A DNA stretch of 64,000 nt from an uncultured Rikenellaceae bacterium. GTDB taxonomy: Bacteria > Bacteroidota > Bacteroidia > Bacteroidales > VadinHA17. The position numbers and the translations under genes were made by a program. Position 1 is the stretch's first letter. Every line of letters starts with the position of its first letter. Below the pieces are notes generated by a model that was not told where the DNA came from, did not search any database, and was given only the letters and a program-made list of their open reading frames with translations. Positions 47,593-64,000 of the stretch are shown here, one piece after another. The stretch lies in NCBI GenBank assembly GCA_963802145.1, contig CAWDHN010000012.1:438721-502720 (forward strand), written 5' to 3'.

Positions 47593-47689
47593 ATTCGCGA
47601 AATAGTGCGTCCTGTGCATGTAATTTTAATTCGTTAATAAAAATTTTTATTTTTACGCTGGAAGAATCACTAACCTTAACCAGAATGTC

Positions 47690-48130
47690 ATGACCAGATT
47701 AATTTGTTTTTGTGCAGTCTTAATTTTACTGTTTTCAGTCTCATGCGGCAACACCCAGAGTGATCAGCCCGTGAAAGCTTCAGGAACCTCAGCCCTTGTA
47801 TCCCCGGAGGTTAAACTTAACTCCGATCTGCAGGCCAAATTAGGATCATGGCTGGAGAAAGATGCTGAATGCTATGGAATAGTAGTAGGTTATTTTGCCG
47901 ATGGAAGTACCCTCGGCAAATCGGTCAAATGCAGGGTTGTCGCAATCAAGCCTGACAAAATAAAGATGAAGACCATTGAGAGTGTCAGTCTGCTTCCGGG
48001 AGAGGGATGCGATAAGATGGGACTGGCCTATGGTGACACATGGTGGGAGGAAGAGGGAGACATCTTCAGAACCCGTGAAGAGGCTGAAGCCTACATCATT
48101 GCGAAGGGCTGGACAAGAAAGCAGCCATAA
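47690..48130 (+). CDS. hypothetical lipoprotein
   Basis: Lipobox SVSC; no recognisable domain. Confidence 0.65.
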   Translation: MTRLICFCAVLILLFSVSCGNTQSDQPVKASGTSALVSPEVKLNSDLQAKLGSWLEKDAECYGIVVGYFADGSTLGKSVKCRVVAIKPDKIKMKTIESVSLLPGEGCDKMGLAYGDTWWEEEGDIFRTREEAEAYIIAKGWTRKQP

Positions 48131-48185
48131 ATCCCTTCTTCAATGAACTGGATAATCCCACTTATTTTTCTGTTTACGGTCTGGG

Positions 48186-48797
48186 ATGAATGATCAGGAA
48201 CTGGTAAAGGCCATTATCAGAGGGGATAATTGTGCCATGCGCGACCTGATATCGAAGTATCAGGATCTTGTGCTTAATACCTGCTATAAGGTTTTGCATT
48301 CGAGGGAAGACGCACAAGACATTGCCCAGGAGGTCTTTATAGAAACATACCGGTCTGCAGCGAGCCTGCGAAACGAAGAGAATATTTCATTCTGGCTCTA
48401 TCGTATTTCACTTAACAAGTCGATCAATCACCTTAAACGTTCCCAGAACATTCTTTTCCGGACAGTCCACCAGCTGGAATCAGTATTCCGTCCTGATATG
48501 ACCGGTAGTTCATCACCCGTTCCCCATTCCGATGATCATCCCGGTGAAATTCTTGAGGCTGCCGAGAGGCAACAGATGCTGTCGGCAGCAGTCGGTTCCC
48601 TGCCACCAAGGCAGCAAAAAGCCTTTATACTTTATTATTATGAGGAACTGGCCTATAAAGAGATCAGCGCCATTCTCGGGCTCTCGGGCTCTTCTGTTGA
48701 ATCACTTCTTTTCCGTGCCCGGGAGAATGTGAGGAAAAGATGCTGCCCGGACTTCCCGGTTAATAAGGAAATTAAAACTTTCAATCATGATACCTGA
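48186..48797 (+). CDS. ECF RNA polymerase sigma factor
   Basis: DAQDIAQEVF, WLYRI..N region 2; LP..Q...F.L...EEL.YKEI..ILG.S...VESLLFRAR region 4. Confidence 0.92.
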   Translation: MNDQELVKAIIRGDNCAMRDLISKYQDLVLNTCYKVLHSREDAQDIAQEVFIETYRSAASLRNEENISFWLYRISLNKSINHLKRSQNILFRTVHQLESVFRPDMTGSSSPVPHSDDHPGEILEAAERQQMLSAAVGSLPPRQQKAFILYYYEELAYKEISAILGLSGSSVESLLFRARENVRKRCCPDFPVNKEIKTFNHDT

Positions 48798-49311
48798 AAA
48801 GACAAACAGGATTTTGCTATGGCTTAACCTGGTTCTGCTCCTGGTTATCGCCTCTGCAGCCGTGACTTTTTTTGTAATGAAAAGTACAAATGAAAAGGTC
48901 AAGGCTGATACCGGCGTGATTAACTCCATGGACCTCCTTCGTAAGGAGCTTGGCCTGACTGATGACCAGTACAGAAAGGTTCTCGTGGAAAATGACCGTA
49001 CCACACGGACCTATAACATTGTCTTCGACATGTTGTGTGAAACAAATGTCGCAATGATTGAGGAACTGGCAAAAACCAACAGTGACCCTGCGGTACTCGA
49101 TAGCTTATCCAGAAAGGTGGGAACCCTGAGCACATCACTCCGGAGACACACAACTGACTATTTCATGAATCTTAAGGGGATATGCAATGAGGAGCAGCAA
49201 CAGAGGCTTACTCTCATCTTCAAGAGTATGATGCAGCTCGACGAGCAGTGCAAGACCTGCAACAAGAAGGACTGCCCGAGAAAGGAGCGCATCAATAACA
49301 TTGGAAAATAA
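48787..49311 (+). CDS. membrane-anchored periplasmic Spy/CpxP/CnrX-like sensor with Cys-rich tail
   Basis: One N-terminal TM; ELGLTDDQ and ICNEEQQQ (LTxxQ-like) motifs; C-terminal CKTCNKKDCP. Confidence 0.65.
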   Translation: MIPEKTNRILLWLNLVLLLVIASAAVTFFVMKSTNEKVKADTGVINSMDLLRKELGLTDDQYRKVLVENDRTTRTYNIVFDMLCETNVAMIEELAKTNSDPAVLDSLSRKVGTLSTSLRRHTTDYFMNLKGICNEEQQQRLTLIFKSMMQLDEQCKTCNKKDCPRKERINNIGK

Positions 49312-49375
49312 ATTTTTGCATTGACCGCAGGTTTTTGGTAAATGAGTTGTCTTTTTAACAGAAAGGAATAAACAG

Positions 49376-49711
49376 ATGACAGACCAGATCAGTGATCTTG
49401 CAGGAGGATTGAAAGGTATGCTTATCACAGCACCCGAATCATTCGCTGACGATGTGATGCATAAGATAGAATTGCAGAAAGAGGGTAGCTTCAGGTCGAT
49501 GCCGGTAGCTTCCCGGATTCTTGTATCAGTCATCATGATAGCCCTTTACTGCTCCCTCGGCATACTTCTCGGAGCAAAAGGTTATGAGGGTCTCAGGCCT
49601 GAAGAAGAGGCATCGTCCCATAAGGCACTTGTGGAACTTATGGAGTCACACCATATGAATTCTGACTTCCTCCATGACCAGTTATTTAAAAACCTGACCT
49701 CAACGAACTAA
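49376..49711 (+). CDS. small single-TM protein, putative anti-sigma factor
   Basis: AP.SFADDVM..I motif typical of anti-sigma N-domains, one TM, His-containing C-tail; in the sigma operon. Confidence 0.5.
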   Translation: MTDQISDLAGGLKGMLITAPESFADDVMHKIELQKEGSFRSMPVASRILVSVIMIALYCSLGILLGAKGYEGLRPEEEASSHKALVELMESHHMNSDFLHDQLFKNLTSTN

Positions 49712-49732
49712 CTTTTTACTATACCTGACCTT

Positions 49733-51649
49733 ATGAAAAAGCAAAACTGGTACAAATTACTTTATCAATTTGCAATTATCGGGATCCTTACGTTCATGGG
49801 TTTCCGACTGATATTCGATAAAGCCTATGCGCCTGATTTCGAGGCATACTGTCCATTTGGCGGACTGCAGGCACTTGGAAGCTACCTCACCATGGACTCA
49901 CTGTCATGCTCGATGACAAGCACACAGATAATGATGGGGGTGGTCCTGTTTATTGGCATTGTTCTTTTTTCCCGACTGTTCTGCGGGTACATATGTCCGC
50001 TGGGGACAATAGGGGAATGGATTGGTAAACTGGGCGACAGGCTTAAGGTAAGGTATACTCCCACAGGATTCGCCGACTATGCTCTCCGGCTGCCGAAGTA
50101 TGTCCTGCTCTTTGTGACATTTTATTTCACGCTTAAGTCGAGCGAGCTGTTCTGCAAGAAGTTCGATCCTTATTATGCCGTTGCTTCGGGATTTGATTCC
50201 GATGTTGCGCTGATGTGGGCCCTGCTCGCAATAGCTGCCCTCCTCATAGGATCGCTTTTCATCAGACTCTTTTGGTGCAGGTATCTTTGCCCCCTTGGAG
50301 CACTGTCAGCAATATTCAAATTCTCATGGTGGTTCCTGGGTGTGATGGGGCTATACGTGATCCTGATTTTGGTCGGGATTGATATATCATATATATATCC
50401 GCTTGTGGTGATCACAACCGGGGGATATATCCTTGAGGTGGCACGGATGAAAAAGGTATGGCCCGATCCGGTTCATATAACCCGTAATACATCAACCTGT
50501 ATTGACTGTGGTCTCTGCTCGGAAAAATGCCCCCAGGGTATTGACGTCGCTTCAATGAAGAAGGTAACTCATACTGACTGCACCCTGTGTGGCGATTGCC
50601 TCTATGTTTGCCCTGAGAAAAATACTCTTCAGATAAACAAAAGGAACATGAAGTGGCTCCCCGCAGCTGTGCTCGGCGCCCTGATAATAATCGGGATTTC
50701 GGCAGGTACATTTTTTGAACTGCCCACCATCGATCAGAAATGGGGTACTCCTGAGCAACTGAAGAGCGCAGGCGTCTTTGAGATGGAAGGACTGAAGAAC
50801 ATCAAGTGCTTCGGCAGTTCAACGGCTTTTGCAAACCAGATGAGAAGAGTGGAAGGCATCTACGGTGTTTCCACCTACGTGGCCAGCCATTCGGTGCATA
50901 TTCTTTATGATACCACCAGATACAACGAGGAGAAGCTGCAGCAGCTTCTTTTCGTGCCGGTCAAGAGAATTATTGAGCCTGTGGCAAGAGATGTTGACTC
51001 GGTGGTCTACTATACACTCACAATCGACAAGTTCTTCGATCCGCTTGATGCCACATACCTTCAGCATCTTCTTGACCAGAAGACAGATGCATGCGGCTAT
51101 CAGAGCGACTTTGCATGCCCGGTGATAGTACGCATTTACTTCCCGCAAGGCAAGGAGCCCGGTAAAGAGTCCCTGGTCCAGGCCATCGAATCAAAAAATC
51201 TGACCTTTACGGCCAATGACAATGAATTCAATGTCAAGCTGCCTTATAAGGTAATCACCTTCGAAGAACAGCCCGGAAAACTTTCAAAAGCTGATTATGC
51301 CTCGGCAATGTTCGTTCCCACAAGCTCACGGTTCAACGGCTTCTCAAACTTCTCCGATGACGTGGTCTCTCAGTACATACTAACTATGGGTCCGAATACG
51401 GCCCACAAAGCCAGGTACAGCTACCTTGTCAGCCATCTCTCCAATGACAGCGGGGTGATTGCCTTTGAGACAATGCTTGATTCAGTCGGGGCCGAACTGG
51501 GGGTGATCCATTTCGTTGACACGGTCACAGTGCCGGAAAACATCTTCTCAGCCGTAAACGCCGATACACTCGTATTCCATTACTCCGACGGCCGAACCGG
51601 TAAGCTTGCCAATCCTTTCCGATTCCCCGACCGTGGCACAGTGAAATAA
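49733..51649 (+). CDS. 4Fe-4S binding membrane protein (NapH/YccM-like) with C-terminal HMA-like domains
   Basis: CPFGG, FCGYICPLG, WCRYLCPLG, CIDCGLCSEKCP, CTLCGDCLYVCP; HMA-like EGLKNIKCFGS. Confidence 0.85.
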   Translation: MKKQNWYKLLYQFAIIGILTFMGFRLIFDKAYAPDFEAYCPFGGLQALGSYLTMDSLSCSMTSTQIMMGVVLFIGIVLFSRLFCGYICPLGTIGEWIGKLGDRLKVRYTPTGFADYALRLPKYVLLFVTFYFTLKSSELFCKKFDPYYAVASGFDSDVALMWALLAIAALLIGSLFIRLFWCRYLCPLGALSAIFKFSWWFLGVMGLYVILILVGIDISYIYPLVVITTGGYILEVARMKKVWPDPVHITRNTSTCIDCGLCSEKCPQGIDVASMKKVTHTDCTLCGDCLYVCPEKNTLQINKRNMKWLPAAVLGALIIIGISAGTFFELPTIDQKWGTPEQLKSAGVFEMEGLKNIKCFGSSTAFANQMRRVEGIYGVSTYVASHSVHILYDTTRYNEEKLQQLLFVPVKRIIEPVARDVDSVVYYTLTIDKFFDPLDATYLQHLLDQKTDACGYQSDFACPVIVRIYFPQGKEPGKESLVQAIESKNLTFTANDNEFNVKLPYKVITFEEQPGKLSKADYASAMFVPTSSRFNGFSNFSDDVVSQYILTMGPNTAHKARYSYLVSHLSNDSGVIAFETMLDSVGAELGVIHFVDTVTVPENIFSAVNADTLVFHYSDGRTGKLANPFRFPDRGTVK

Positions 51650-51677
51650 ATAGTAACCGATAACTGAAAGCAATCAT

Positions 51678-52562
51678 ATGTATGCAATAGAGTGCAAAAA
51701 CCTCACCCATTATTACGGACGTAAGCTTGTCTATGAGAACCTGAGCTTCAACGTGGAGGAGGGAAAGATACTGGGCCTCCTTGGCAAGAACGGCACAGGC
51801 AAATCGACGACCATCAATATTCTTAACGGCTTTTTACAACCGAACTCCGGCGAGTGCCTTATCTACGGAGAGAACACCCAGCTTCTCACTCCTGAAACAA
51901 AGAGAAGGATTGGCTTCCTGATCGAAGGCCATGTGCAGTATTCGTTTATGAATATCCATCAGATTGAAAAGTTCTATTCAGGCTTTTATCCCAACTGGAA
52001 CAGTGCCCCTTACTGGGAGCTTATGTCAAAGCTCAAGGTAACTCCGAAACAGAAAATCTCAACGATGTCATGTGGCCAGCGATCACAGGTGGCTTTGGGG
52101 CTTATTCTTGCACAGGACCCCGACCTGCTGATCCTTGACGACTTCTCCATGGGACTGGATCCGGGTTACAGGAGACTCTTCATTGACTATATGCGTGAGT
52201 ACGCCAAGGCCGAACACAAAACCGTCTTTGTTACTTCCCACATCATCCAGGACATGGAGAGGCTGATAGACGACGTCATGATAATGGATTACAACAAGAT
52301 ACTTGCCCAGCAGCCTATAGACCAGTTCATGTCCAGCTTCAGGCAGTTCAATATCACGCTGGCTTCACCTGAAGAAGAAATTGATATGGACGGAATTGCG
52401 GTTAACATCGATAAGGTGAAGGACAAAATTGAGTTCTACACCTACTCAAAGGAAGATGAAGTAAAAGGATACCTCAATGCAAAGGGGATAGCCTATACCT
52501 CATTCGACGAGAAAAAGATGTCACTTGAGGATGCATTTATCGGACTGACCCGTAAGTATTAA
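51678..52562 (+). CDS. ABC ATP-binding protein with variant motifs
   Basis: GKNGTGKST Walker A; signature MSCGQ; Walker B LLILDD; TSH. Confidence 0.9.
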   Translation: MYAIECKNLTHYYGRKLVYENLSFNVEEGKILGLLGKNGTGKSTTINILNGFLQPNSGECLIYGENTQLLTPETKRRIGFLIEGHVQYSFMNIHQIEKFYSGFYPNWNSAPYWELMSKLKVTPKQKISTMSCGQRSQVALGLILAQDPDLLILDDFSMGLDPGYRRLFIDYMREYAKAEHKTVFVTSHIIQDMERLIDDVMIMDYNKILAQQPIDQFMSSFRQFNITLASPEEEIDMDGIAVNIDKVKDKIEFYTYSKEDEVKGYLNAKGIAYTSFDEKKMSLEDAFIGLTRKY

Positions 52563-52579
52563 CCCTGAATTTTACCTCT

Positions 52580-53248
52580 ATGCTGAAATCATTAATATAC
52601 AAAGAATGGATCAAGATCAGGCTTGTAGTCTGGATTGCTTTGGGACTGAGTCTCGTGGCACTGATCAACATATTCCTCAAGGTACGTCATGATATTCTGT
52701 TTGTTGACGCTGCCAATTACTGGTACTCATTCCTTTTCAGGGGAGTTACTTTTTTCAGTATCCTCAAGTTCCTCCCATTTATAATAGGACTGGCCATTGC
52801 AATAGCCCAGTATTTCCCCGAAACGGTCAACAAGCGGATCAAGCTTACTTTCCATTTGCCGGTATCTGAGAACGGTGTTCTGATATGGATGCACACATTT
52901 GGAGCGCTTGTCATTTTAACAGTGTTTCTGGTGGTCCTCGCATTGTTCACCGCCGGCAGCGCCATCTTCTTTCCCTCAAACATCATCAGGGCCTCCCTGC
53001 TGACCATGATGCCATGGTTCCTTGGAGGGATGGCAACATACTTCCTTGTTGCCCTGATTCTGCTTGAACCGATGTGGATCTTCAGGGGGTTATACACCGC
53101 AGTGGCGGCAGGTTTTGTCACAGTCTTCTACACCAGTGCATCGATAGGTGCGTTCAAACCGGTACTTATGCCACTGGCACTCATCACACTGCTGTTAAGT
53201 TTAGTTGTGTTGTTTTCAGGTTACAGATTCAGGAAAGGAGAGATGTAA
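52580..53248 (+). CDS. ABC-2-like permease
   Basis: KEW.K start, AQYFPE..NKRIKLTFHLP, ~6 TM. Confidence 0.75.
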   Translation: MLKSLIYKEWIKIRLVVWIALGLSLVALINIFLKVRHDILFVDAANYWYSFLFRGVTFFSILKFLPFIIGLAIAIAQYFPETVNKRIKLTFHLPVSENGVLIWMHTFGALVILTVFLVVLALFTAGSAIFFPSNIIRASLLTMMPWFLGGMATYFLVALILLEPMWIFRGLYTAVAAGFVTVFYTSASIGAFKPVLMPLALITLLLSLVVLFSGYRFRKGEM

Positions 53249-53249
53249 G

Positions 53250-54497
53250 ATGATAAAGTTCAGCAGATACATACTTGTGGCTATTGGCATACTGGTTGCC
53301 TCCATCGTGTTGCCCTCATTGTTCTGGACAATCTTTGAAAAGGTGCCCAGATCACCCAATATATTTTATAGTTGCATTACCGAAGACTTTATCGTTGTCG
53401 ACGGTAGCATCAGGAAATCTCCTGAAGGAAGGGAATATACCTCTGACGAATACGAACAGGCACTTCCCTTCATGTTCTACCGGCAGCTTATGGCTGACGA
53501 TACAATGCCCGATACCATCAAAGGAGTGAAGATGGAGACACCCTCGATAGCCAGGGCTTCATCGTTCTACCGCTATACTCCCAAGAGGCTGGATGCTCCT
53601 GCACCAACGCTTTGGCCCTTGCTGGAATCTCAGAGCGGTAAGGTGAACCTGGCCATGCCCGAGGATTATTTCCGCATTGAAAAACGAATGGAATTCATCG
53701 TTGCCAGAACCAATGAGATCAATGAGGAAAAGAGCAGGCTCTTTACCGAAGCGCTCACGGCTGAAGGATTTATCTTTCCGGCAAATCTCATCGCCGGATT
53801 ACCGACAACAAGAAAGTCATGCGATGAGGGTTACTTTATCACTGATAACGAGGGGTCGCTCTTCCATGTGAAAATGATAAAGGGAGAACCTTACGTGGTT
53901 AGAATTGAAACCCCGGAAAAGCTTGACATTGTTTATATTGAAGCGGTTGACCTCAGAAGCAAAGAGTACTATTGTTATGTTTTTACAAGAAATCAGGGTA
54001 TATTTGTGATAATGGATGAGGTTTATGATCTTCAGCGGCTGCCCGTTGACGGTTTTGATCCTGCCATTCACACATTCAGGCTGAGCGCAGACCTGTTCAA
54101 CAAATGTATCACCATTCTTGGTGAAAACTGGTACGAGGCAATAGCTGTTGACGAAATGTATCAGGTAGTGGGAACACACGGGGAGAAATGGGAAGGCCTC
54201 TATGAGAGACCGGAGGGGAAAATGCTTGCCACATTATTTCCTTTCGAGATAAGAATGAAGGATGAAGATTCCTCCTTTGTGAGGTTCTACTTCAAACCTT
54301 CACCCGGCTTCATGTGGCTGATCTTCAACCTTATTGCTCTCATAGCTGTTATGCTGCTAATAACGAGGCGGGGGTGGTCACTGAAGGCAAACATTCCTGA
54401 TCTCCTGATAACCGCGGCGACTGGTATTTACGGACTGATAGCCACCCAGTTCTTTCCGAATAAGTTCAGCAAGGTGAAACCACCAACAAAAAAATGA
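53250..54497 (+). CDS. DUF4857-like membrane protein with large periplasmic domain
   Basis: N- and C-terminal TMs; LP..FYRQL, PL.ES.SG, DEGYF..D..G.LFH.KM..G; likely start ATG 53250. Confidence 0.7.
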   Translation: MIKFSRYILVAIGILVASIVLPSLFWTIFEKVPRSPNIFYSCITEDFIVVDGSIRKSPEGREYTSDEYEQALPFMFYRQLMADDTMPDTIKGVKMETPSIARASSFYRYTPKRLDAPAPTLWPLLESQSGKVNLAMPEDYFRIEKRMEFIVARTNEINEEKSRLFTEALTAEGFIFPANLIAGLPTTRKSCDEGYFITDNEGSLFHVKMIKGEPYVVRIETPEKLDIVYIEAVDLRSKEYYCYVFTRNQGIFVIMDEVYDLQRLPVDGFDPAIHTFRLSADLFNKCITILGENWYEAIAVDEMYQVVGTHGEKWEGLYERPEGKMLATLFPFEIRMKDEDSSFVRFYFKPSPGFMWLIFNLIALIAVMLLITRRGWSLKANIPDLLITAATGIYGLIATQFFPNKFSKVKPPTKK

Positions 54498-54501
54498 TGC
54501 C

Positions 54502-57391
54502 TTGAAAAAGCTTCTTTCCATCCTGGTATTGGTTTTTGCGGCCCTGACACTATCGGCCCAGACAAAGCCTTCGATGCAGGGAAAGATCATCTGCCGGACC
54601 ACCGGGGAACCGGTAACAATGGCTACCGTCGTTGTGAAAGAGCTTAATATCTGGGCAACGACAACAGATAACGGAGATTTTGTTCTGAAGACTGTCCCTC
54701 CGGGGAACTATACCCTGGTGGTCTCATGTCTGGGGTTTATACAGCATGAGCACAGTGTCATCTTCCCTTTGAGCGAGGAAAAGGTGACCATCATGATTGA
54801 TGAAGCCACCCTGGCAATAGAAGATGTCGTTGTCACGGCAAAGGAGGGACGGCGCATCGCTTCCGGGTCAGTGATAGAGCAGGCTGCCATTCAGCATGTT
54901 CAGCCTACCGACCTCTCCGATGTGCTTCAGCTGCTGCCCGGACAGACGGCGCTGAATCCTGACCTTTCAAAGCCGAAGCAGCTGACTGTCAGGGAGATCA
55001 TTCGCAAGGACGGTTATGTAAGTGATAATATGGCCAGCCTCGGGACACTGCTCGTTGTTGACGGTGCACCGGTATCAAACGACGCCAATATGCAGTTCCT
55101 TAAAACCACCGGTGCCTCAACGGGTGTTACGGCCGGGTTTGCCACCTCGGCATCCGGCGGAACTGATGTACGCCAGATTTCCGTTGACAACATCGAAACC
55201 ATAGAGGTTGTGAGAGGCATTGCAGGTGTTGAAAACGGTGACATGCTTAGCGGTGCGGTCAAGGTAACCATGAAGAAGGGAAAGACACCATTCACCGCAA
55301 AGATTAAAACTGACCCGGGCATTAAGCAGTTCTATGCAGGGAAAGGACTGTCACTTGGGGAGAAGGCAGGAACCCTTAATCTCGATTTTGACTATACCCA
55401 GTCATTTGACGACATCAGGTTAAAATACAAGACATTCAACAGACTGAACGGTGGCATCATTTACAACAATACCCTTTTCCGGGATTCAAAGCCCCTTACA
55501 TTAAGTCTTTCCGCAAGAGGGTACCAGACGGTTGATATGAACAAGAAAGATCCTGATATGCTTGATATTGAGGATTATGAAGCAAGAGACAAGGGGATAT
55601 CATTCAATCTGAATACCAAGTGGGCACTCAACTCACTGCTACTGACAAACCTCAATCTTATGGTCTCGGGAGACCTCCAGCATCAGGTGGGCCATGAGGT
55701 GACGCTTGAGGAGATACCTTCAGGTGCACAGCCTCAGCCTGTGGCTCTTGAGCCGGGAGAGAACCAGGTACCTATCCTTCCTTCATCATACATCAGCGAT
55801 CTTACGATTGACGGCAAACCATATTATTATAATGCCAGGCTCTCCGGCAACCGTTCCTTTAACATCGGTCATGTGCTCAGCAACGTTGTGGCAGGTGTTG
55901 AATGGAAGTTATATGGCAACGACGGGCTTGGCAGGGTTTATGATCTGTCACGGCCACCGGTGCCCACCGGAGGAACGGATGCCAGGCCAAGGTCATACAA
56001 GGACATCCCCTCGCTGGGCCAGCTGGCCTATTATGCCGAGGAGAACCTGGCTATACCCATCGGAAAAACAAGGCTGGACCTGCAGGCAGGAATAAGGTTC
56101 ACCAATGTTCAGCCTGACGGACTATTCAGCTCAAAGGAAGAGACAACTATGCTGGACCCGAGGTTCAATGCAAGATATACCGTTATTGACAAGGGGAAAA
56201 ATGCTATATCGCACCTGGCAATAAGAGGAGGGTACGGCCTCTTCTCAAAAGCCCCTTCACTTCTCTATCTCTATCCGGATAAAGCTTACTGGGACAAGAC
56301 AGGACTAAGCTATTATGACCCTGTTGCCCAGAGCGGCCTGTTCGTGGTGACTACAAAGATTTTCGAAGATCCACGCAACGAGAGCCTTGCGCCTGCAGTC
56401 AACAGGAAACTGGAAGCCGGTTTTGATATGACTGTCAGTGATATTGACATCAATGTCACCCTCTACTCCGAGAAGATGGAGAATGGATTTCAGCTTTGAG
56501 TCTTACTATGAGAATTTCATCTTTAACCGCTATACACAGCCTACTCAGAATGGCCTTGATCTCTATTTTGTGCCCGGATCCGGAGTATTCTATACCGACC
56601 CTGTAAGCGGAACGGAAATACAGCTTCCGGTCACGAATGATACAGTCTTCGTCAGTTTTACCTATCCGCAGAACGGAACCATGACAACGAAAAAGGGAGT
56701 TGAGTTTACCCTTGATCTGGGGACGGTGCAGGCGCTCAGGACATCCTTTATTGTTGACGGAGCATGGATGATGGTAAGAAGACAGGCAATAGTGGAGGAC
56801 TTAACAAAGCCTTCCTCGGGAAGCATCGGCGGAAAGGAGTACCCTCTGGTGGCTGTTTATCCTGCGGGCTACGGAAGCATAGACAAGCGTTTCAATACAA
56901 ATATCAGAACCATTACCCACATCAGGGAGCTTCGGATGGTTGCAACCATCACAACCCAGATAATATGGTTGGACCGTGACCAGAATGTCTGGGATGATCC
57001 TGATGGCAATCCCCTGTTCTATACCACTACTCCTGTTGATGATGTTTATGCGGACAAGATCTATCCGAAATACGTTGACCCGGTTGGCTATTATGACAGG
57101 CAGATGGTATATCATGACTTCGAACGTGAACTAGCGGTATCAAAACCCTATTCGGACTTGATAAAGCGTTATAATACACCCTGGTATTTTGCGGAAACGG
57201 GCTATCCGCCCTATTTTGTCATAAACTTCAAGCTTACCAAGGAGATAACAGATTACGTCAATATTTCTTTCTATGCAAATAACATTACCAACCATAATCC
57301 ACTGCTGAAACAGAGCGGCGGAGCGCCGGAAGTATATGCACGCAGGAATCCGCCGCTCTATTTCGGGGCAGAGTTGAAAATTAAGTTCTAA
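54502..57391 (+). pseudogene. TonB-dependent receptor with a +1 frameshift at ~56488-56490 (possibly an assembly error)
   Basis: Plug motifs (DVRQI..DNIE.IEVVRG) in 5' ORF; barrel end YFGAELKIKF in 3' ORF; GGATTTCAGC minus one T restores ENG-FSFESYY. Confidence 0.85.
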
Positions 57392-57407
57392 CCAATAATT
57401 ACAGAGT

Positions 57408-58613
57408 ATGAAAAAGTTTCCGTTATTATTAGTCATGATGATTGCAGGCGTGATGGCACTCACCTCCTGCGAAAAGGGCGCCGAGCTCTATGATGTGTCC
57501 ATAACAGCCTTCTATCCTGAAGGATACGGGACAGAAAAAGTAGCCAGTCAGGAGATCAAAGTCAAGAATACCCTGACAGGGATCGAAATCACTGCAACAA
57601 CTGACGCAACCGGTGTTGCGCAGACAGAACTGGAGGAGGGGATGTACACCATACAGGCCACCCTGGAGACAGATGATTTCTACTTCAACGGTATAACCGA
57701 GAACCTTACCGTCAGTACCAGTGCCGTAAACAACTGGGAGATCCATATGATTGCCTCCTCCAAAGCGGGCGGACTGGTGCTCAAGGAGATCTATTACACA
57801 GGCTCCAAGACTGAGGCAGGGAGTAATTACTATTCGGATCAGTTCCACGAGATCTACAACAACAGTGACGAAGTTATCTATCTTGACGGCCTGTGTATCG
57901 GCCTGCTTGAGCCGATTGGCACTTCTCCTACCGTGTGGGTCAATCAGGATGGATCAATAATGGACAGGCTGCCGATAGCTTACCATGCGTTGATGTTTCC
58001 CGGCACCGGCCAGCAGTACCCGATACAGCCCAGGACAAGTGTGGTCCTCGCAATGGATGCAATCGACCATAAGACAGACCCTCTGGGTAACCCACTCTCC
58101 CCTGTGAACATGGCAAGCGCACAGTTTGAGGCTTTCATTGAAGCTCCGGGTAAGGACACTGATTCTCCGCAGGCTGCTAACCTGATCGTAATGTATACAA
58201 CCTCTGCTTCAATGTATGACTGGCTCCATTCAGTGAATGGCGCTGCAGTTGTGCTGTTCAGACTCCCTACCGGTCTTAACTATGCGAGTTTTGCCGCCAA
58301 TCCGGATAATTTTATGACGAAACCGGGCACAACATCAGCCACTCAATACTTTATGGTACATAAAGACTGGGTGATCGACGGTGTTGAATGCAACCGTCCG
58401 GAGGAGGACAAGAGATTCAAGCGTCTTCCTACATCGGTTGACGCAGGCTGGACATGGAGCCTTGCCACCTACAACAGCAAGAGCGTGAGAAGGAAAGTTG
58501 AGAAGATTCTCGATGGAAAGGTATTCTACAAGGATACAAATAACTCGACCAACGACTTCCTCATCGATCAGACTCCGACTCCTTTTGTCCATCCAACTTC
58601 TGTGGATCTGTAG
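57408..58613 (+). CDS. DUF4876-like surface lipoprotein
   Basis: LTSC lipobox; GLVLKEIYYTGS..YYSDQF.EIYNNSDE.IYLDGL; DTNNSTNDF. Confidence 0.8.
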   Translation: MKKFPLLLVMMIAGVMALTSCEKGAELYDVSITAFYPEGYGTEKVASQEIKVKNTLTGIEITATTDATGVAQTELEEGMYTIQATLETDDFYFNGITENLTVSTSAVNNWEIHMIASSKAGGLVLKEIYYTGSKTEAGSNYYSDQFHEIYNNSDEVIYLDGLCIGLLEPIGTSPTVWVNQDGSIMDRLPIAYHALMFPGTGQQYPIQPRTSVVLAMDAIDHKTDPLGNPLSPVNMASAQFEAFIEAPGKDTDSPQAANLIVMYTTSASMYDWLHSVNGAAVVLFRLPTGLNYASFAANPDNFMTKPGTTSATQYFMVHKDWVIDGVECNRPEEDKRFKRLPTSVDAGWTWSLATYNSKSVRRKVEKILDGKVFYKDTNNSTNDFLIDQTPTPFVHPTSVDL

Positions 58614-58625
58614 TTTACACCAGGT

Positions 58626-58668
58626 GCAGTGTGCCGGAAACCGGTAAACCGCATGTCCGGCACACTGC
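58626..58668 (+). promoter_or_regulatory. intra-operon stem-loop (13-bp perfect stem, no long U tract)
   Basis: GCAGTGTGCCGGA-N17-TCCGGCACACTGC. Confidence 0.7.
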
Positions 58669-58695
58669 CTTAAAACAATTGAACTGATCCGGCTG

Positions 58696-60264
58696 ATGAA
58701 TAAATTAACCTCAATAATTATTGTGACCTCTTTGTTAGCCGCAGGGATGGGCTCAGGCGCGGCTGCCCAGGATAATGAAACGGCAGGCAGCAGTCTGTTT
58801 GAGACATTGCCGGTAGTTCTTCCCTGGACAGGCACATCGAATCCGGCAGCACTGGCTGATTATGACTTCGGCAACCATAGCCTTGTCCAGGCAGGGTATA
58901 ACTGGCAGAAGAGCGAAATCAGATTCATTCAGCAGCCTGATCTTACATCGGCCTACAATGTTGCCATAAAGGGATACAAACAGCTGGAAAAGATCATACT
59001 CTCCGGGTCATTCGGATACTCCAACTCCGCTTATGAAGGGGTAAACTATAACGGAACCATGATGTTCAACACTCTGAACCCTTATCTCCTCGGAGATACG
59101 GTGTCAGCCAGGCAGTCCATGGAAAGCTTTGACATGGAGGGGAAGATGAGCTACATTATGAACGATCGCATCAGCCTTGCTATTGGCGTTGAGTATCTGA
59201 CAGCTGTTGGTGCCAAACAGAAGGACCCTCGAAACAAGAATACGATTTCCTTGCTTAAAGTCACTCCTGGGGTGACCTATAATTTCGGAAAAACAAAAGT
59301 CGGACTTTCAGGGTCAGTTTATAACACCAGTGATGAGCTGTCTTACACGGTTGAAGGTAACTGGAACCAGAGCCTCTTTACCTTCCTGGGGCTGGGTTAC
59401 TACAGGCAGGAGCCAAATATCTCATCCTATACGCAATGGTATACAGGAAGGGGTTATGCCGGTTCGCTTCAGGCTTCGCACGATGGCGGCGATATATATC
59501 TGATTGGTGAACTCAGCTATGACCACTTCTCTGAGGAGGCCAGAACCGGCAGTTCATTGAGGCTCATCAACGGTATAGCCTCAACAAATGACATCTCTCT
59601 ATCAGGATTACTGAGAATTTCCGGCGAAAAGGCACAACACATTTTCTCCGTTACAGGTTCCTATCTGTCGGTCAGCGGCGACGAGATCCTCCAGCGGTCA
59701 TACACCGTCAACAAGGGCACCTATTCCTATGACTCGCTCGCAACTGTCAGCTGGATCGAGAACAAGCACATGATAAATGATATAGCAGGTGAACTGACTT
59801 ACTCTTACCTGGTCTTTGACAGCGACCGCAATATCGACCTGAAAGTGGGTGGAGCGCTTGATGCGAAATATTTTTCAACCGAACATTTCCCGGTTCAGAG
59901 CTACGGTTTTTATAACGTATTCAATATCGGTGTAAACATCTTTGCACGCAAGCTTTTCAGGTTTGGTACCCTGATGGTGACACCAGGGCTGGATGCAGGT
60001 TACCGTATGAACCTGGGCAGCGACATTTCATATGTGGTACAACCGTTGAGTGTACCGGATATGGTTTACCATGATTATTTTATCTCAAAGGCGGACGTAA
60101 TAAGTGCGGCAGTTTCTGTCAGGCTTGAGAAGCCCGTCATCGGCAACAAATTTATAAACTCATTGTTTCTATTGCCACAGGGCCGGTGGGCTGCGGCTCC
60201 CGGTTCCGAAGCCGGAAACCTGTCAGGTTACATGGTAAATGTTGTGGCCGGACTTACATTCTGA
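58696..60264 (+). CDS. outer membrane beta-barrel protein (DUF6850-like)
   Basis: Signal peptide, SNPAAL, GAKQKDPR..N motif, amphipathic strands, C-terminal F. Confidence 0.7.
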   Translation: MNKLTSIIIVTSLLAAGMGSGAAAQDNETAGSSLFETLPVVLPWTGTSNPAALADYDFGNHSLVQAGYNWQKSEIRFIQQPDLTSAYNVAIKGYKQLEKIILSGSFGYSNSAYEGVNYNGTMMFNTLNPYLLGDTVSARQSMESFDMEGKMSYIMNDRISLAIGVEYLTAVGAKQKDPRNKNTISLLKVTPGVTYNFGKTKVGLSGSVYNTSDELSYTVEGNWNQSLFTFLGLGYYRQEPNISSYTQWYTGRGYAGSLQASHDGGDIYLIGELSYDHFSEEARTGSSLRLINGIASTNDISLSGLLRISGEKAQHIFSVTGSYLSVSGDEILQRSYTVNKGTYSYDSLATVSWIENKHMINDIAGELTYSYLVFDSDRNIDLKVGGALDAKYFSTEHFPVQSYGFYNVFNIGVNIFARKLFRFGTLMVTPGLDAGYRMNLGSDISYVVQPLSVPDMVYHDYFISKADVISAAVSVRLEKPVIGNKFINSLFLLPQGRWAAAPGSEAGNLSGYMVNVVAGLTF

Positions 60265-60268
60265 AATT

Positions 60269-62419
60269 ATGAAGAACTTAATTGTTACAGCAGTGATGGC
60301 GTTGACCCTGTTAACGCCATCACTTTCTCAGCCCCTTAAAGGGGAATTTGCGATAATCGTTGACAGCCATTCTCTGAATACAGCAGGCGATGAAATAAAA
60401 CAATATGCCGCCGTCCTTCAGTCAGAAGGCCTGGATGCAGTGATCATTGAAGACCGCTGGCAACACCCTGACTCAATTAGGCTGCTTCTGCGCGAGATGT
60501 ACACCTCCAACAAAGGATTCGAGGGTGCTGTCTTTATCGGAGATATCCCGGTGCCTATGCTCCGTGATGCCCAGCATCTCACATCGGCATTTAAGATGGA
60601 CCAGGAGAGGTATCCATGGCACAGGTCGTCAATAGCATCTGACCGCTTCTATGAGGATTTTGACCTGCAGTTTGATTTTCTCAGGGCAGACACCAACGGG
60701 CTCTATTACTATTACAGTTTGAATCCGTCATCGGTACAGGTACTCACCCCGGATATCTACAGCGGCCGCATACGGATACCGGGTGACAGTGACGGCTCGA
60801 AGCTCAGGGCCTACATGACCAAGGTGGTTGAGGCACACAGAAACCCCGATAGGGTTGATGAGGTTCTGTTCTTTGCCGGTCATGGCTATAACTCCGAATC
60901 GATGACTGCCAGGATGGATGAGAAGGCTGCACTGCTTCAGCAGTTTCCGCAGCTGAACAGGCAGGACAACGGTCTCGAGTATATTGATTACACCTTTGAT
61001 GAGCATATCAAGAACCGCCTTCTGTCAGCCATGACCATTGAGCAGACTGACATAGCTCTTCTGCATCACCATGGGTCAACCGACGCTCAGCTGGCCGGTT
61101 CTGAGGCGGCTGCAAACGGTGTCCAGCAGAATATTGAAAGCATTAAATTTTACCTCCGCTCAAAGGTAAGGGGTGCCAAAGATACAACAGATGCCAAGAA
61201 GCGGTATATGGAGTGGCTGGATGTCCCTGATTTATGGTTTAAGGGGGCAAACGAGAAAATTCAGTCGGAAAAGGATTCGGCATGGTTTGCCGACATGGAT
61301 ATTATCTCTGCAGATTTGGTGAAATATGATGTCAAGACACGGTTCATCATGTTCGACGCCTGCTTCAACGGTTCCTTCCATGTGGATGAGTTTATCTCCG
61401 GCGCTTATGTGTTTGGTCCCGGACGTACTGTGGCTGCACAGGCAAACACCGTTAACTCGCTGCAGGATAAATTCCCGGATGAGATGGTGGGCTTACTCTC
61501 CTACGGTATGAGGGTGGGAGAGTGGAACCGCATGGTCTGTCTCCTTGAATCACATATAATTGGGGACCCCGCATTCAGGTTTGCCTCATCATACCCGAAA
61601 CTTGATGCAGACAAAATGATGCAGATCGCAGGCAACAATTCCAGGTTGGTTAAACTGGTCTCCTATCCTCATCCTGACGTTCAGAGCTGGGCACTCTGGC
61701 ACCTTAAGCGGAACGGTTACCCCGGCATCAGCAACATGTTGGCCGATAAGTACTTCAGCTCTCCATATGCCACTACCCGTGTTTCTGCCATGAAGCTGCT
61801 GGCGCAACTGCGTGATGACAACTTTGTACGAGTGACCTCTGCCGCACTTGATGATTTATATGAGCTTGCAAGGCGTTTTGCCGCGGTCTACTGCCAGGAG
61901 TCAGGCGACCCCCGCCTGGTGCCGGCACTCATCAGGTCAGTGACTGATCCCAATGTATCAAAAAGGGTGAATTATCAGGCTGCTGATGCACTGGCCTATT
62001 TTGACAGGGATTTGCTGATGCAGGAACTTGATAAAAGGTTTGCAGGCCTTGATACCTCAAATTATCTCGGAACTATTTACCGGCAGACAGCAGCAAATAT
62101 TGAAAAGAGGGCAAAGTCGTGCCGCGAGACCCTTGAGACCATAACGGGGTCTGACGTGACCGAAAAGAACAGGATTTTTGATATCAGGGCACTCCGGAAC
62201 CTGACCTATCACCCGCTTGTTGAGCCACTGTGCGACTACCTGCTCACAGCCCCCGGAGAAAAGCTGGAGGTAACGCTTGTGGAGGCCCTGGGCTGGTTCA
62301 GCCACAGTTACAAGAGACAGCATATAGTTGATACATGCAACAGGATCATCTCAGACACTGATAAGTTTGCGGAATCCGTCAGGCAGGAGGCTGTCAGGAC
62401 AATAAGACGCCTGCAATAA
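60269..62419 (+). CDS. gingipain (C25)-like cysteine peptidase domain + HEAT-like repeats, secreted
   Basis: AVFIGDIP, SDRFY, PDIYSGRI, HHHGS, FIMFDACFNGSF, IIGDP; helical repeat C-terminus; start ATG 60269. Confidence 0.75.
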   Translation: MKNLIVTAVMALTLLTPSLSQPLKGEFAIIVDSHSLNTAGDEIKQYAAVLQSEGLDAVIIEDRWQHPDSIRLLLREMYTSNKGFEGAVFIGDIPVPMLRDAQHLTSAFKMDQERYPWHRSSIASDRFYEDFDLQFDFLRADTNGLYYYYSLNPSSVQVLTPDIYSGRIRIPGDSDGSKLRAYMTKVVEAHRNPDRVDEVLFFAGHGYNSESMTARMDEKAALLQQFPQLNRQDNGLEYIDYTFDEHIKNRLLSAMTIEQTDIALLHHHGSTDAQLAGSEAAANGVQQNIESIKFYLRSKVRGAKDTTDAKKRYMEWLDVPDLWFKGANEKIQSEKDSAWFADMDIISADLVKYDVKTRFIMFDACFNGSFHVDEFISGAYVFGPGRTVAAQANTVNSLQDKFPDEMVGLLSYGMRVGEWNRMVCLLESHIIGDPAFRFASSYPKLDADKMMQIAGNNSRLVKLVSYPHPDVQSWALWHLKRNGYPGISNMLADKYFSSPYATTRVSAMKLLAQLRDDNFVRVTSAALDDLYELARRFAAVYCQESGDPRLVPALIRSVTDPNVSKRVNYQAADALAYFDRDLLMQELDKRFAGLDTSNYLGTIYRQTAANIEKRAKSCRETLETITGSDVTEKNRIFDIRALRNLTYHPLVEPLCDYLLTAPGEKLEVTLVEALGWFSHSYKRQHIVDTCNRIISDTDKFAESVRQEAVRTIRRLQ

Positions 62420-62471
62420 TATACCGGATAAGAGGGGCAGGCCAATTCCTCAGGCATAGTCCCTAATAACA

Positions 62472-62502
62472 GCAAAGACAGGCCACACGGGCCTGTCTTT
62501 GC
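62472..62502. terminator. bidirectional terminator hairpin
   Basis: GCAAAGACAGGCC-ACACG-GGCCTGTCTTTGC between convergent genes. Confidence 0.8.
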
Positions 62503-62528
62503 GTACAAAACATATTGATTTCGGATGT

Positions 62529-64000
62529 CTATTCTTCTTCCTCTTCTCCGGCGTAAGCCTTGATGACTGCATCCTGGACCTCTCCGGGAACCGGTGAATA
62601 CTCCGAGAACCTCATCGTGAACATCGCGCGGCCGCCGGTGAGCGAGCTGAGAGCCGTCGAGTACTTGTTCATCTCTGCCAGGGGAACCCTTGCCTTGATA
62701 ATCTCAAAACCCTTTTCGCTTGCCATGCCCAGAACCATTCCGCGGCGCCCCTGCAGGTCGCTGATCACATCACCCATGCGGTCGGAGGGAACCCATATCT
62801 CAACCTCATAGACCGGCTCAAGGATCTTCGGACCGGCGTTCTTGAAGGCGGTGCTGAAGGCATTACGGCCTGCCAGACGGAATGATATTTCGTTTGAATC
62901 AACCGGGTGCATCTTGCCGTCATAGACATAGACCCTGATGTCACGTGCATAGGAGCCGGTGAGCGGACCTACCTCCATCTTTTCCATTATGCCCTTGAGG
63001 ATTGCGGGCATGAAGCGTGCGTCAATGGAGCCGCCGACGATACAGTTCATGTATACAAGCTTGCCACCCCACGGAAGGTCAATCTCCTCCTTGTCGCGGT
63101 TGGCCAGCTTGATCTCCTTGCCGGCGATCTTCATCATCGACTTGGCTTCCGAACCCTCTTCAAAGGGCTCGATGATCATGTGAACCTCACCGAACTGACC
63201 TGCGCCGCCCGACTGCTTCTTGTGACGGTAGTCGGCCTGTGCCGTCTTGGTAATGGTCTCCCGGTATGGGATCTTCGGTGCGATATACTGGGTCTCGATC
63301 TTAAAGATATTGTCAAGATGCCATTTCAGTATATTGAGATGATATTCGCCCTGGCCGTGGATGATGATCTGCTTGAGCTCCTTGGAGTACTCGACGATGA
63401 TCGTCGGGTCTTCCTGGTGCATACGGTTGAGAGACTCGCCCATCTTCTCCTCGTCACTCTCGCTGAGAGGCTTGATGGCAGCGCGGTACTTGGGCTCGGG
63501 AAACTTCATGTTCTCATATGTCCAGTCGTTGCCCGGAGCATTGAGAGTATGATTTGTCTTGGTGTTCTTCAGCTTGACAAAGCCGCCTATGTCACCTGCA
63601 TGAATCTCGGGTACGCGTGTACGGTTCTTGCCTGCGCAGACGAAGATCTGCGAGAGTCGTTCCTTGGTTCCGTTGCTGGTGTTGATGACATCGAGGTTCT
63701 CACCTATCTTGCCTGACATCACCCTGAAGTAGTTGATCTCGCCTATGTGCTCCTCGAGTGTTGTCTTGAAGACGAAGACTGAGGCAGGTGCGGCAGGATT
63801 GCATTTCACCTCGGTGCCCTTCGAGTTCTTCGGGGCCGGCATGTCAGAAGGTGCGGGAGCGGACACAGCCGTGAAATCGAGCAGCCTGTCAACGCCTATA
63901 TTGCCTTTTGATGATACGCAGAAAACGGGAAACACACCCCTCTTCAGCAGTCCCTGGCTAAGACCGCGTCCAATCTCCTGCTCGGTGAGCTTGTCGTTGG
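62529..64000 (-). CDS. fusA2: elongation factor G paralog (EF-G2 type), 5'-truncated by window
   Basis: YRETI, HKKQSGGAGQFGEV, DGKMHPVDSNEISF, ILEP, DL..RRG; long insertion in domain IV; frame open to window end. Confidence 0.9.
   Translation of the reverse strand, partial: NDKLTEQEIGRGLSQGLLKRGVFPVFCVSSKGNIGVDRLLDFTAVSAPAPSDMPAPKNSKGTEVKCNPAAPASVFVFKTTLEEHIGEINYFRVMSGKIGENLDVINTSNGTKERLSQIFVCAGKNRTRVPEIHAGDIGGFVKLKNTKTNHTLNAPGNDWTYENMKFPEPKYRAAIKPLSESDEEKMGESLNRMHQEDPTIIVEYSKELKQIIIHGQGEYHLNILKWHLDNIFKIETQYIAPKIPYRETITKTAQADYRHKKQSGGAGQFGEVHMIIEPFEEGSEAKSMMKIAGKEIKLANRDKEEIDLPWGGKLVYMNCIVGGSIDARFMPAILKGIMEKMEVGPLTGSYARDIRVYVYDGKMHPVDSNEISFRLAGRNAFSTAFKNAGPKILEPVYEVEIWVPSDRMGDVISDLQGRRGMVLGMASEKGFEIIKARVPLAEMNKYSTALSSLTGGRAMFTMRFSEYSPVPGEVQDAVIKAYAGEEEEE

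Follow-up and report, generated by a model that had tools for sequence, protein, structure and literature searches.

Loci that pair a TonB-dependent receptor (TBDR) with a DUF4876 protein are, in the published passages that mention them, among the genes most strongly induced by iron starvation in Bacteroides thetaiotaomicron and Porphyromonas gingivalis. In the parts of PMC10434189 that deal with these loci, BT3625-33, which encodes a DUF4857 protein, a hypothetical protein, an ATP-binding cassette (ABC) ATPase, two PepSY_TM proteins, a fimbrillin, two DUF4876 proteins and a TBDR, was upregulated 37- to 128-fold under iron depletion; PG1019-22 (DUF4876, TBDR and hypothetical proteins) rose 21- to 214-fold and BT1933-39 (HEAT, DUF4876 and TBDR) 3.5- to 7.4-fold. 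PG1019/1020 were also raised in a haem-limited hemH mutant and, in the section of that 2026 report that covers them, were termed an uncharacterised transport system (PMC13096392). The DUF4876 proteins BT1938 and BT3632 are presented in the relevant passages of bioRxiv 10.1101/2023.03.17.533168 as receptor lids predicted by AlphaFold-Multimer, with DUF4876-receptor proximity conserved in 59 to 81 genera; the matching passages of that preprint and of PMC10434189 assign no function to DUF4876, DUF4857 or DUF6850. In the Fus system, ferredoxin enters through a TonB receptor and is then cut by an M16 protease, and related clusters are widespread in Proteobacteria, according to the passages of PMC6793856 on these systems. 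Here we describe a locus at positions 47690-62419 of a 64,000-nucleotide stretch of DNA, hereafter the window, from an uncultured Rikenellaceae bacterium (GenBank assembly GCA_963802145.1, contig CAWDHN010000012.1, positions 438,721 to 502,720 of the forward strand). It represents the fullest form of the receptor-plus-DUF4876 system and is very probably a conserved, dedicated, TonB-dependent multi-module system. It is read here as a non-Sus TonB-dependent import system that would combine import, proteolysis and reductive release of a metal, probably iron, a reading to which a rough probability of one half was given.

The gene row at 48186-62419 on the + strand was found to be co-directional and tightly packed, neighboring genes in the open reading frame (ORF) listing overlapping by up to 11 nt or lying at most 82 nt apart. 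The original prediction had described this row as eleven genes; the row, its order and its direction held up, but it was one gene short (g00, 47690-48130), and the receptor ORF is split. Because the g00 lipoprotein gene travels with the cluster, the unit was taken to comprise twelve genes (g00 to g11, all on the + strand), which, judged from the sequence, probably form one operon spanning 47690-62419. The predicted domain content matched the Pfam scan (extracytoplasmic function [ECF] sigma factor, Fer4_5/4Fe-4S, ABC_tran, DUF4857, TonB receptor, DUF4876 and HEAT_2). Also as predicted, Pfam detected neither a SusD nor a glycoside hydrolase nor a solute-binding protein in the 16 ORFs scanned, the range for SusD being 47236-63935.

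The case for a functional unit comes from comparison across genomes. Seventy-six loci were collected from species-representative genomes by way of a DUF4876 alignment, and the window proteins were mapped onto them by tblastn and blastp. Counts were taken from a full-flank set, namely, the 47 loci whose sequence extended for no less than 9.9 kb on the upstream side and 8 kb on the downstream side, the other 29 of the 76 being dropped because of short flanks. The carriers belonged to Bacteroidales, Prolixibacteraceae, Marinilabiliales and other environmental Bacteroidota, and the nearest locus, L002 from a Bacteroidales metagenome-assembled genome (MAG), held all twelve genes at 72 to 97% identity. 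Cultured carriers include Maribellus sp. YY47 (L061), which has g00, the Fe-S protein, the receptor with its lid, the barrel and the ABC genes, as well as Draconibacterium orientale DSM 25947 (L060) and Proteiniphilum acetatigenes DSM 18083 (L063). The receptor and DUF4876 were present in 47/47 loci, DUF6850 in 43/47, the C25-HEAT protein in 37/47, the ABC ATPase, permease and DUF4857 in 31 to 32/47, the g00 lipoprotein in 29/47, the iron-sulfur (Fe-S) protein in 27/47, and the sigma factor with its sensor in 22/47. All loci with the sigma factor had the Fe-S protein (22/22), and 22 of the 27 loci with the Fe-S protein had the sigma factor. The g00 gene was always accompanied by DUF4857 (29/29), as was the Fe-S protein in 26/27; the latter was also found with C25-HEAT in 25/27 and with g00 in 25/27, and 25 of the 37 loci with the HEAT protein had the Fe-S protein. 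The expectation that the four upstream genes co-occur with the rest was therefore borne out by this profiling, most directly by the 22/22 association of sigma factor with Fe-S protein and the 26/27 association of the latter with DUF4857. The whole gene set was found in 20/47 loci and in two gene orders, the second of which, that of Prolixibacteraceae, places the ABC/permease/DUF4857 trio after the HEAT gene. This recurrence in two orders indicates a gene row far beyond chance, and the retention of the same content through rearrangement argues for a functional unit.

A reverse test was also conducted, in which 400 other Bacteroidota genomes were searched with the last 298 residues of g04, the Fe-S protein. 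The domain was detected in 11 of the 400, always within an ORF of 638 to 674 amino acids (aa); counting the genome of the window as well, it occurred in 10 of 180 genera. DUF4876 occurred in 30/400 and DUF4857 in 18/400 genomes of the sample as background, compared with 10 and 7, respectively, of the 11 g04-type genomes; DUF4876 lay on the same contig within 16 kb in 8 of these, and DUF4857 on the same contig within 12 kb in all 7. The eleven distant g04 homologs shared 36 to 37% identity with the window protein. Directly 5' of the homolog, an M16 peptidase of about 921 to 961 aa was encoded in 7/11 loci, and an M28 peptidase was present in 4/11, while DUF6850 was found in 5/11 and DUF4876 inside the fetched stretch in 3/11. 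The g04-type Fe-S family therefore appears, from gene content, to be tied to this kind of cluster, with a peptidase nearly always present and its family varying. Since the distant clusters carry M16 or M28 enzymes instead, proteolysis seems integral to the system, as it is to Fus ferredoxin import in Proteobacteria.

Further partners were observed in the distant loci. BNR/Ycf48-like propellers with a type IX secretion system (T9SS) sorting domain were encoded in 6/11; in L092, L093, L094, L095, L096 and L100, these T9SS-sorted BNR/Ycf48/sortilin-like propellers lie between DUF6850 and the peptidases, and they could be surface capture proteins. DUF4920 and PepSY_TM_like_2 were found directly 3' of the Fe-S homolog in 3/11 (L096:10560-11700, L097:8486-9497 and L098:8232-9321), from which both putative transmembrane redox modules can evidently share one cluster. 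In one distant locus, L099, genes for a multihaem cytochrome c and a TonB-like barrel accompanied that of the g04 homolog. Taken across genomes, the core consists of receptor and lid, g00 travels with the ABC/DUF4857 genes and the sigma factor and sensor with the Fe-S protein, while the protease and the transmembrane redox protein are recurrent, exchangeable modules.

The outer-membrane set is encoded by g08 to g10. Pfam assigned CarboxypepD_reg, Plug and barrel domains to g08 (54502-57391), a non-SusC TBDR of about 962 aa, which scored 58 bits against the SusC/RagA model TIGR04056 (cut-off 368.25), the match covering only the N-terminal 212 residues. In the window, g08 is read as two ORFs, 54502-56499 (665 aa) and 56438-57391 (317 aa), the second ending in ...LKIKF, a typical barrel C terminus. 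The break is caused by one extra base at about 56488 (56486-56489, at GGATTTC), seen as a 1-nt gap in alignments with relatives. Five of six relatives examined (L002, L003, L004, L006 and L012) have a single receptor ORF of 962 to 963 aa; the sixth, L018, is fragmented throughout. Four metagenome runs were also compared at this position; the most similar, X1, does not cover the site, and the contigs of the three that do (X2, X4 and X6, from three studies) lack the extra base. Its absence from relatives and from three metagenomes points either to a fault in the assembly or to a break that arose recently in this strain or population and left a pseudogene. A programmed frameshift was ruled out, as the base is simply missing from the relatives and the three other metagenomes. 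In L018, which is 86% identical in DUF4876, nearly all cluster genes are in pieces, which looks like an indel-rich long-read assembly, and this locus was considered unfit for arguments on gene integrity.

Directly downstream of the receptor gene, co-directional with it and after a 16-nt gap, lies g09 (57408-58613), a DUF4876 lipoprotein (4.7e-46) with lipobox LTSC and a putative surface lid; the same adjacency to a non-SusC receptor was seen in 47/47 full-flank loci. A PDB search matched g09 to entry 4q1z at an E value of 2.2e-40, and 973 homologs were found. The product of g10 (58696-60264) is a DUF6850 protein (5.1e-68) with a signal peptide and is probably an outer-membrane beta-barrel; its distant homologs also matched OMP_b-brl, FadL/Toluene_X and BBP2_2, weakly.

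The last gene, g11 (60269-62419; longest ORF start 60239), encodes a putative secreted or periplasmic protein in which a gingipain-fold (clan CD, C25-like) cysteine peptidase domain, at about residues 22 to 449, is followed by HEAT/ARM repeats at about 442 to 716. Pfam reported HEAT_2 and a weak match to Peptidase_C25 (PF01364; E 0.0023, 17.7 to 19.0 bits against a cut-off of 23). A model built from a 20-sequence alignment reached a mean predicted local distance difference test score (pLDDT) of 80 and a predicted template modeling score (pTM) of 0.78. In this model, residues 25 to 449 aligned to RgpB (4ief_B) with Z 22.9 and a root mean square deviation of 3.1 over 283 residues, and further matches were obtained to Kgp (4rbm_A; Z 21.0), PorU (Z 12.9) and separases (Z 9.5 to 11.5). 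With the whole g11 model, Foldseek returned HEAT/armadillo proteins only; the peptidase fold surfaced in a wide all-against-representatives search. The C25-like assignment that had been proposed is therefore stronger than Pfam indicates, with gingipain fold matches at Z 21 to 23.

The model places H268-G269 after a strand at residues 262 to 266 and A364-C365 after a strand at 359 to 362. Across 20 orthologs, H268, G269 and C365 were invariant and A364 was at least 90% conserved. His-Gly and Ala-Cys, each following a hydrophobic strand, form the catalytic dyad pattern of clan CD. The GHGY histidine H205 was considered as the catalytic residue and rejected, since it is Tyr or Ser in 5/20 orthologs. 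The signal peptide of the window copy is an ordinary one, but several orthologs have a lipobox cysteine at that point. The catalytic-domain fold and the His-Gly...Ala-Cys pattern are thus common to g11, the gingipains RgpB and Kgp, and PorU; g11 differs from them in an identity of only 13 to 17%, a C25 Pfam score below cut-off and the fusion to HEAT repeats. No adhesin domain was found in g11, and by Pfam no T9SS C-terminal domain was found in it or in the other window proteins.

The candidate redox component is g04 (49733-51649), a 638-aa membrane polyferredoxin of the NapH/NosR/CcoG type with Fer4_5 and 4Fe-4S domains. It scored 45.4 bits against Fer4_5 (PF12801; cut-off 22) and, like NapH, NosR and CcoG, has two CX3CP motifs and two 4Fe-4S motifs. 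These are followed by a transmembrane (TM) helix and three predicted periplasmic ferredoxin-fold domains resembling heavy-metal-associated (HMA) domains. It differs from the named proteins in lacking the flavin mononucleotide-binding domain, in adding the triple HMA-like C terminus, and in falling far below the equivalog cut-offs (52.5/213 bits for NapH, 46.1/1000 for NosR and 23.5/316.7 for CcoG). Invariant positions were C84/C88, C182/C186 and the eight cluster cysteines, with C359, C462 and H568 in the C-terminal part. According to the passages of PMC8238504 on such proteins, NapH-like (PF12801) and PepSY-like proteins have been proposed to be modular transmembrane electron-transfer units, and the PepSY-like ones have been tied to iron reduction.

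The g04 model had a pLDDT of 75 overall and of about 85 to 92 in the C-terminal 300 residues, where three beta-alpha-beta-beta-alpha-beta units were resolved. The best fold matches of these units were HMA domains of ATP7B, Ccc2a, HAH1, CCS and ZntA (Z 6.4 to 7.4); ATP7B and Ccc2a were aligned over the whole target at Z 7.4 and 7.2, the fold being very common and all Z values below 8. A CxxC or MxCxxC motif is absent from the three domains, which contain only the single residues C359 (KCFGSS), C462 (CPV) and H568, and Pfam gave no HMA match to the C-terminal part, even at low stringency. Given a common fold and the absence of CxxC, "HMA-like fold" is the limit of assignment. The HMA label of the original prediction is accordingly retained only as a likeness of fold (Z 7.2 to 7.4) and dropped at the level of motif and Pfam family.

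Between the Fe-S protein and the receptor lies an ABC module whose layout is reminiscent of GldAFG or NosDFY. The ATPase g05 (51678-52562; ABC_tran, 1.7e-22) is of the ABC-2/DrrA/GldA/PmtA-like kind, its nearest NCBIfam models being the exporter-type PmtA, GldA and DrrA, each below cut-off. The product of g06 (52580-53248) is a 222-aa polytopic permease with about 5 to 6 TM helices by hydropathy; it gave no match in Pfam (low stringency included), in NCBIfam or in a PDB profile search. In mapped relatives, g06 always lies between g05 and g07. The DUF4857 membrane protein g07 (53250-54497, 3.8e-82; alternative TTG start at 53205) has, by hydropathy, an N-terminal TM helix, a periplasmic domain of ∼300 aa and at least one C-terminal TM helix; sequence and profile searches found no PDB relative, and ESM Atlas returned DUF4857 clusters only. 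DUF4857 was also observed without DUF4876 in seven genomes of one Bacteroidota family (G011, G050, G098, G226, G294, G302 and G398). In six of the seven it lies within a much longer ORF, of 660 to 713 aa; this is a separate subfamily, probably a fused one, in another context.

The 5' end of the operon encodes a 146-aa lipoprotein and a regulatory cassette. For the lipoprotein, g00 (lipobox ...SVSC), no match was found in Pfam (also at low stringency) or NCBIfam, in a PDB profile search, or, as a usable hit, in ESM Atlas. In 21 orthologs, residues C19, W54, C61, G63, E97, G115, W118 and E120 were invariant. An ECF-type sigma-70 factor is encoded by g01 (48186-48797; Sigma70_r2 1e-14, r4_2 1.3e-16), which scored 103 bits against TIGR02937 (cut-off 42.9). 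Its neighbor g02 (48787-49311; 174 aa, one N-terminal TM helix) encodes a candidate membrane-anchored periplasmic sensor of the Spy/CpxP/CnrX-like kind (Metal_resist, LTXXQ). The window copy by itself scored only E 0.11, while 13/16 orthologs matched PF13801 (best 4.7e-6) and 7/16 matched LTXXQ. Searched against PDB, the family profile matched 5ihf, a VirG-like Spy-type protein, at E 0.0026 and NccX (4clv) at E 0.34, the latter a weak match over nearly the full length. Of the conserved cysteines C84, C133, C155, C158 and C163, four were invariant and the fifth nearly so, part of them within a C-terminal QCxxCNKxxC motif.

The third gene of the cassette, g03 (49376-49711), encodes a 111-aa single-pass membrane protein for which Pfam returned nothing at low stringency. 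Structure prediction placed its first 45 residues in complex with g01 at an ipSAE of 0.75, compared with 0.00 for the best control; the partner pLDDT was at least 74, and the runs agreed in at least 96% of contacts. The ipSAE mark applied is reached by 116/157 solved and 2/215 mismatched pairs. The predicted contacts involve sigma residues 15 to 56 and 125 to 186, that is, regions 2 and 4. Since structures of sigma/anti-sigma complexes have been solved, likeness to them may account for part of this pass. In 16 rearranged relatives in which BLAST missed g03, the corresponding slot was occupied in 15 by a one-TM protein of 75 to 133 aa, with an HxxxCxxC motif in 11 of the 15; the 16th locus is the frameshift-ridden L018, in which the ORFs look like artefacts. 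On the strength of the predicted complex, g03 is probably the anti-sigma factor for g01, and the cassette as a whole reads as an ECF sigma factor, a Cys-rich CnrX/Spy-like periplasmic sensor and a small anti-sigma factor.

Putative signals were located at both ends of the unit. A promoter-like element, TTATTTTT-ACGCTGGAAGAATCA (47647-47669, + strand), lies about 20 to 45 nt 5' of the first ATG, and the TTAT.T.T of its TTATTTTT part is kept in 10/10 aligned upstream regions of relatives. The element resembles the Bacteroidota -7 element, TAnnTTTG. A sigma-70 promoter scan gave no excess over shuffles (16 sites against 20.0 ± 4.4). At the 3' end, the terminal hairpin named in the original prediction was located at 62472-62502 (unstranded) with a 13-bp stem, between the operon and a convergent gene on the - strand for an elongation factor G (EF-G)-like protein (domains II to V; 62529-63998, cut by the window end), with which it is shared. 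Upstream, a terminator-like hairpin at 47558-47595 (+ strand) was read directly from the sequence. It has a 7-bp stem, AGCGACG/CGTCGCT, an 11-nt loop and a T-rich tail, and is absent from the output of the consensus hairpin scan.

This upstream hairpin ends a separate operon at 40942-47529, which encodes a TetR regulator, a TolC-like channel, an adaptor (membrane fusion protein) for the resistance-nodulation-division (RND) family, an MdtC-like RND pump and a PG0541-family transporter-associated protein with a P-II-like fold. RND and PG0541 genes adjoin the cluster in L015, L021 and L022 as well. The operon was considered as part of the system and rejected, being hairpin ended and adjoining the cluster only in these close relatives and not in rearranged loci. 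The G+C fraction is 0.45 to 0.51 within the locus (48000-62000) and 0.52 to 0.55 in the flanking RND and EF-G-like genes, which may reflect horizontal acquisition or merely the composition of membrane and secreted proteins.

These observations can be assembled into a working model. A lidded receptor would take up a metal bound to a protein or peptide, most likely iron in an Fe-S or other iron protein or in a peptide metallophore. The periplasmic peptidase would cut the carrier, the HEAT domain holding the cargo, and the Fe-S membrane protein would send electrons outward to the periplasmic Cys/Cys/His domains, where the metal would be reduced or released. Fe(II) might then enter through a transporter encoded elsewhere; the genome contains FeoB (190 bits) and two Fur-family genes outside the locus. 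For the ABC-2/DUF4857 module, powering the periplasmic step or exporting leftovers would be likelier roles than metal import, and the sensor, anti-sigma and sigma factors would set expression according to a periplasmic metal or redox signal. Three features argue for this import of carrier-bound metal with carrier cleavage and reductive release, and for iron as the likeliest metal: the exchange of C25-HEAT for M16 or M28 peptidases, the exchange of NapH-like for PepSY_TM proteins between related clusters, and the response of homologous modules to iron starvation. The proposal of an envelope-spanning, self-regulated import machine consequently survives in inferred form, through the protease fold, the redox protein and the co-occurrence data; its identification with a known iron capture system is not supported.

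Several points weigh against this model. The link to metal, and to iron, runs by analogy through homologs in other species that are related by Pfam family and neighborhood. According to the passages of bioRxiv 10.1101/2023.03.17.533168 that report them, mutants of BT1938/39 and BT3632/33 had no clear phenotype in fitness under the conditions used. The YddB-PqqL system, a relative of Fus, gave no growth support under iron limitation in LB in the corresponding part of PMC6793856, so that this analogue is only partly validated. Within the locus, a frameshift interrupts the receptor gene as assembled, and the ABC module is exporter type with no binding protein. HMA-like folds (common, at Z 7.2 to 7.4 and without CxxC) together with a sensor resembling CnrX/NccX are seen more typically in systems for Cu, Ni, Co or Zn than in those for Fe. 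Many of the loci are close kin, and the counts therefore overstate independence; moreover, absence of the protease from 10/47 and of the Fe-S protein from 20/47 makes both accessory to the TBDR-DUF4876 core.

The HMA-like folds and the sensor also suggest a reading in which the same machine serves another transition metal, such as Cu, Ni, Co or Zn, or its metallophore. The Fe-S protein would then be a reductase of the cupric type or relay the metal as a metallochaperone, and the CnrX-like cassette would sense that metal. Besides the best matches of the g04 domains, which are to Cu and Zn HMA domains, the placement of g02 in the heavy-metal resistance/LTXXQ family in 13/16 orthologs and its weak NccX likeness favor it; the Fer4_5 relative CcoG is reportedly a cupric reductase, and Fer4_5 and ABC-2 sets of the NosR/NosDFY type serve copper-centre assembly. 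The HMA-like domains have no CxxC, however, and their fold matches are weak, while the homologous modules respond strongly to iron depletion and the PepSY_TM partners, on the published passages, point to iron reduction, so that this reading is considered unlikely. Still less likely is nutrient uptake of protein or peptide, brought in by the receptor for the peptidase, or envelope redox or quality control with no metal role, the Fe-S electrons then feeding a reductive step in the periplasm such as the reduction of disulfides or sulfoxides of the cargo. Recurrent C25-like, M16 and M28 peptidases and the secreted propellers of 6/11 distant loci would suit it, as would the many extracytosolic redox enzymes that NapH-like proteins serve according to passages of PMC8238504, yet it leaves unexplained the iron-starvation induction of homologous modules, the metal-sensor-type regulator and the PepSY_TM partners.

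The exporter-type ATPase and the PorU fold match (Z 12.9) also raise the possibility of an export or assembly machine, in which a lipid, a peptide or a surface protein would be exported or inserted by ABC-2/DUF4857 and DUF6850, the C25-like protein being a PorU-like processing enzyme, or of extracellular electron transfer, for which the pairing of a g04 homolog with multihaem cytochrome c in L099 could be cited. Against both, the plug-bearing TonB receptor and lid lipoprotein are invariant in 47/47 loci, which argues for import, and the window proteins lack a T9SS C-terminal domain; such a machine is judged highly improbable. The probability is close to negligible for what the original prediction had proposed, namely, orthology of the last seven genes to the iron capture system (ICS, PUL3) by which Capnocytophaga canimorsus takes iron from transferrin, the locus being an extended, self-regulated version of it. 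The two have in common that they are multi-gene, iron-linked outer-membrane systems of Bacteroidota in which a TonB receptor is accompanied by several functionally unassigned proteins, and ICS obtains iron from a protein source. In the pertinent passages from its own laboratory, however, ICS is the third Sus-like complex, encoded by a typical polysaccharide utilization locus (PMC4576167), and the Riemerella anatipestifer homologs of icsC-icsH are listed in part of PMC5429918 as SusC/RagA, RagB/SusD, a zinc metallohydrolase and hypothetical proteins. By these descriptions, ICS is SusC/SusD based, whereas the window locus has neither SusD nor metallohydrolase, and its receptor fails the SusC/RagA model (58 against 368 bits), leaving the proposed orthology unsupported. 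The carriers of the window-type locus, moreover, are not commensals of animals but MAGs from sediment, hydrocarbon and aquatic settings.

With the comparison across genomes, four domains of unknown function are brought together in a model of import coupled to proteolysis and redox chemistry that can be tested. A bolder and more tentative proposal, which we regard as somewhat doubtful, is that Bacteroidota own a class of metal piracy from whole proteins or peptide metallophores, composed of a lidded receptor with DUF6850, exchangeable proteases, a previously unrecognized transmembrane Fe-S reductase with an HMA-like acceptor, and a CnrX-like/ECF switch. If this were so, a function would be given to DUF4857, DUF4876, DUF6850 and the g00 family, and those orphan loci of B. 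thetaiotaomicron and P. gingivalis that respond most strongly to iron would be explained.

By Pfam family and neighborhood, the nearest relatives of the locus appear to be BT1933-39, BT3625-33 and PG1019-22, all of them uncharacterized. As far as their published gene lists go, BT1933-39 has the TBDR, DUF4876 and HEAT-repeat protein in common with the window locus, and BT3625-33 the TBDR, DUF4876, DUF4857, ABC ATPase and hypothetical permease. Where BT3625-33 has two PepSY_TM genes, the window locus has the NapH-like Fe-S gene, and it has no fimbrillin. Compared with all three, it adds the DUF6850 barrel, the gingipain-fold domain on the HEAT protein, g00, and the sigma/sensor/anti-sigma genes. 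The regulatory cassette resembles CnrYXH/NccYXH in its ECF sigma factor, probable short single-pass anti-sigma factor and candidate membrane-anchored four-helix LTXXQ/Metal_resist sensor. It differs in gene order, in the five conserved cysteines of the sensor, in the weakness of the NccX similarity (E 0.34) and in its attachment to an uptake rather than an efflux operon.

We know of no description of protein-import systems of the Fus kind in Bacteroidota, and a text search of PMC6793856, which describes protease-associated clusters in Proteobacteria, gave no mention of Bacteroidetes. In the passages of that paper on Fus of Pectobacterium and on YddB-PqqL, both show iron-dependent expression and the same logic as the window locus, in that a TonB receptor, a dedicated protease and an ABC protein are encoded in one cluster. 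The window protease belongs to clan CD and is C25-like with HEAT repeats, whereas that of Fus/YddB-PqqL is an M16 enzyme, the family found in 7/11 distant loci. Unlike Fus, the window locus has no FusB-like TonB gene and adds the lipoprotein lid, the transmembrane Fe-S protein and the ECF cassette. In working terms, therefore, it may be regarded by analogy as a Bacteroidota counterpart of the proteobacterial Fus/YddB-PqqL type of protease-associated import, built from unrelated parts.

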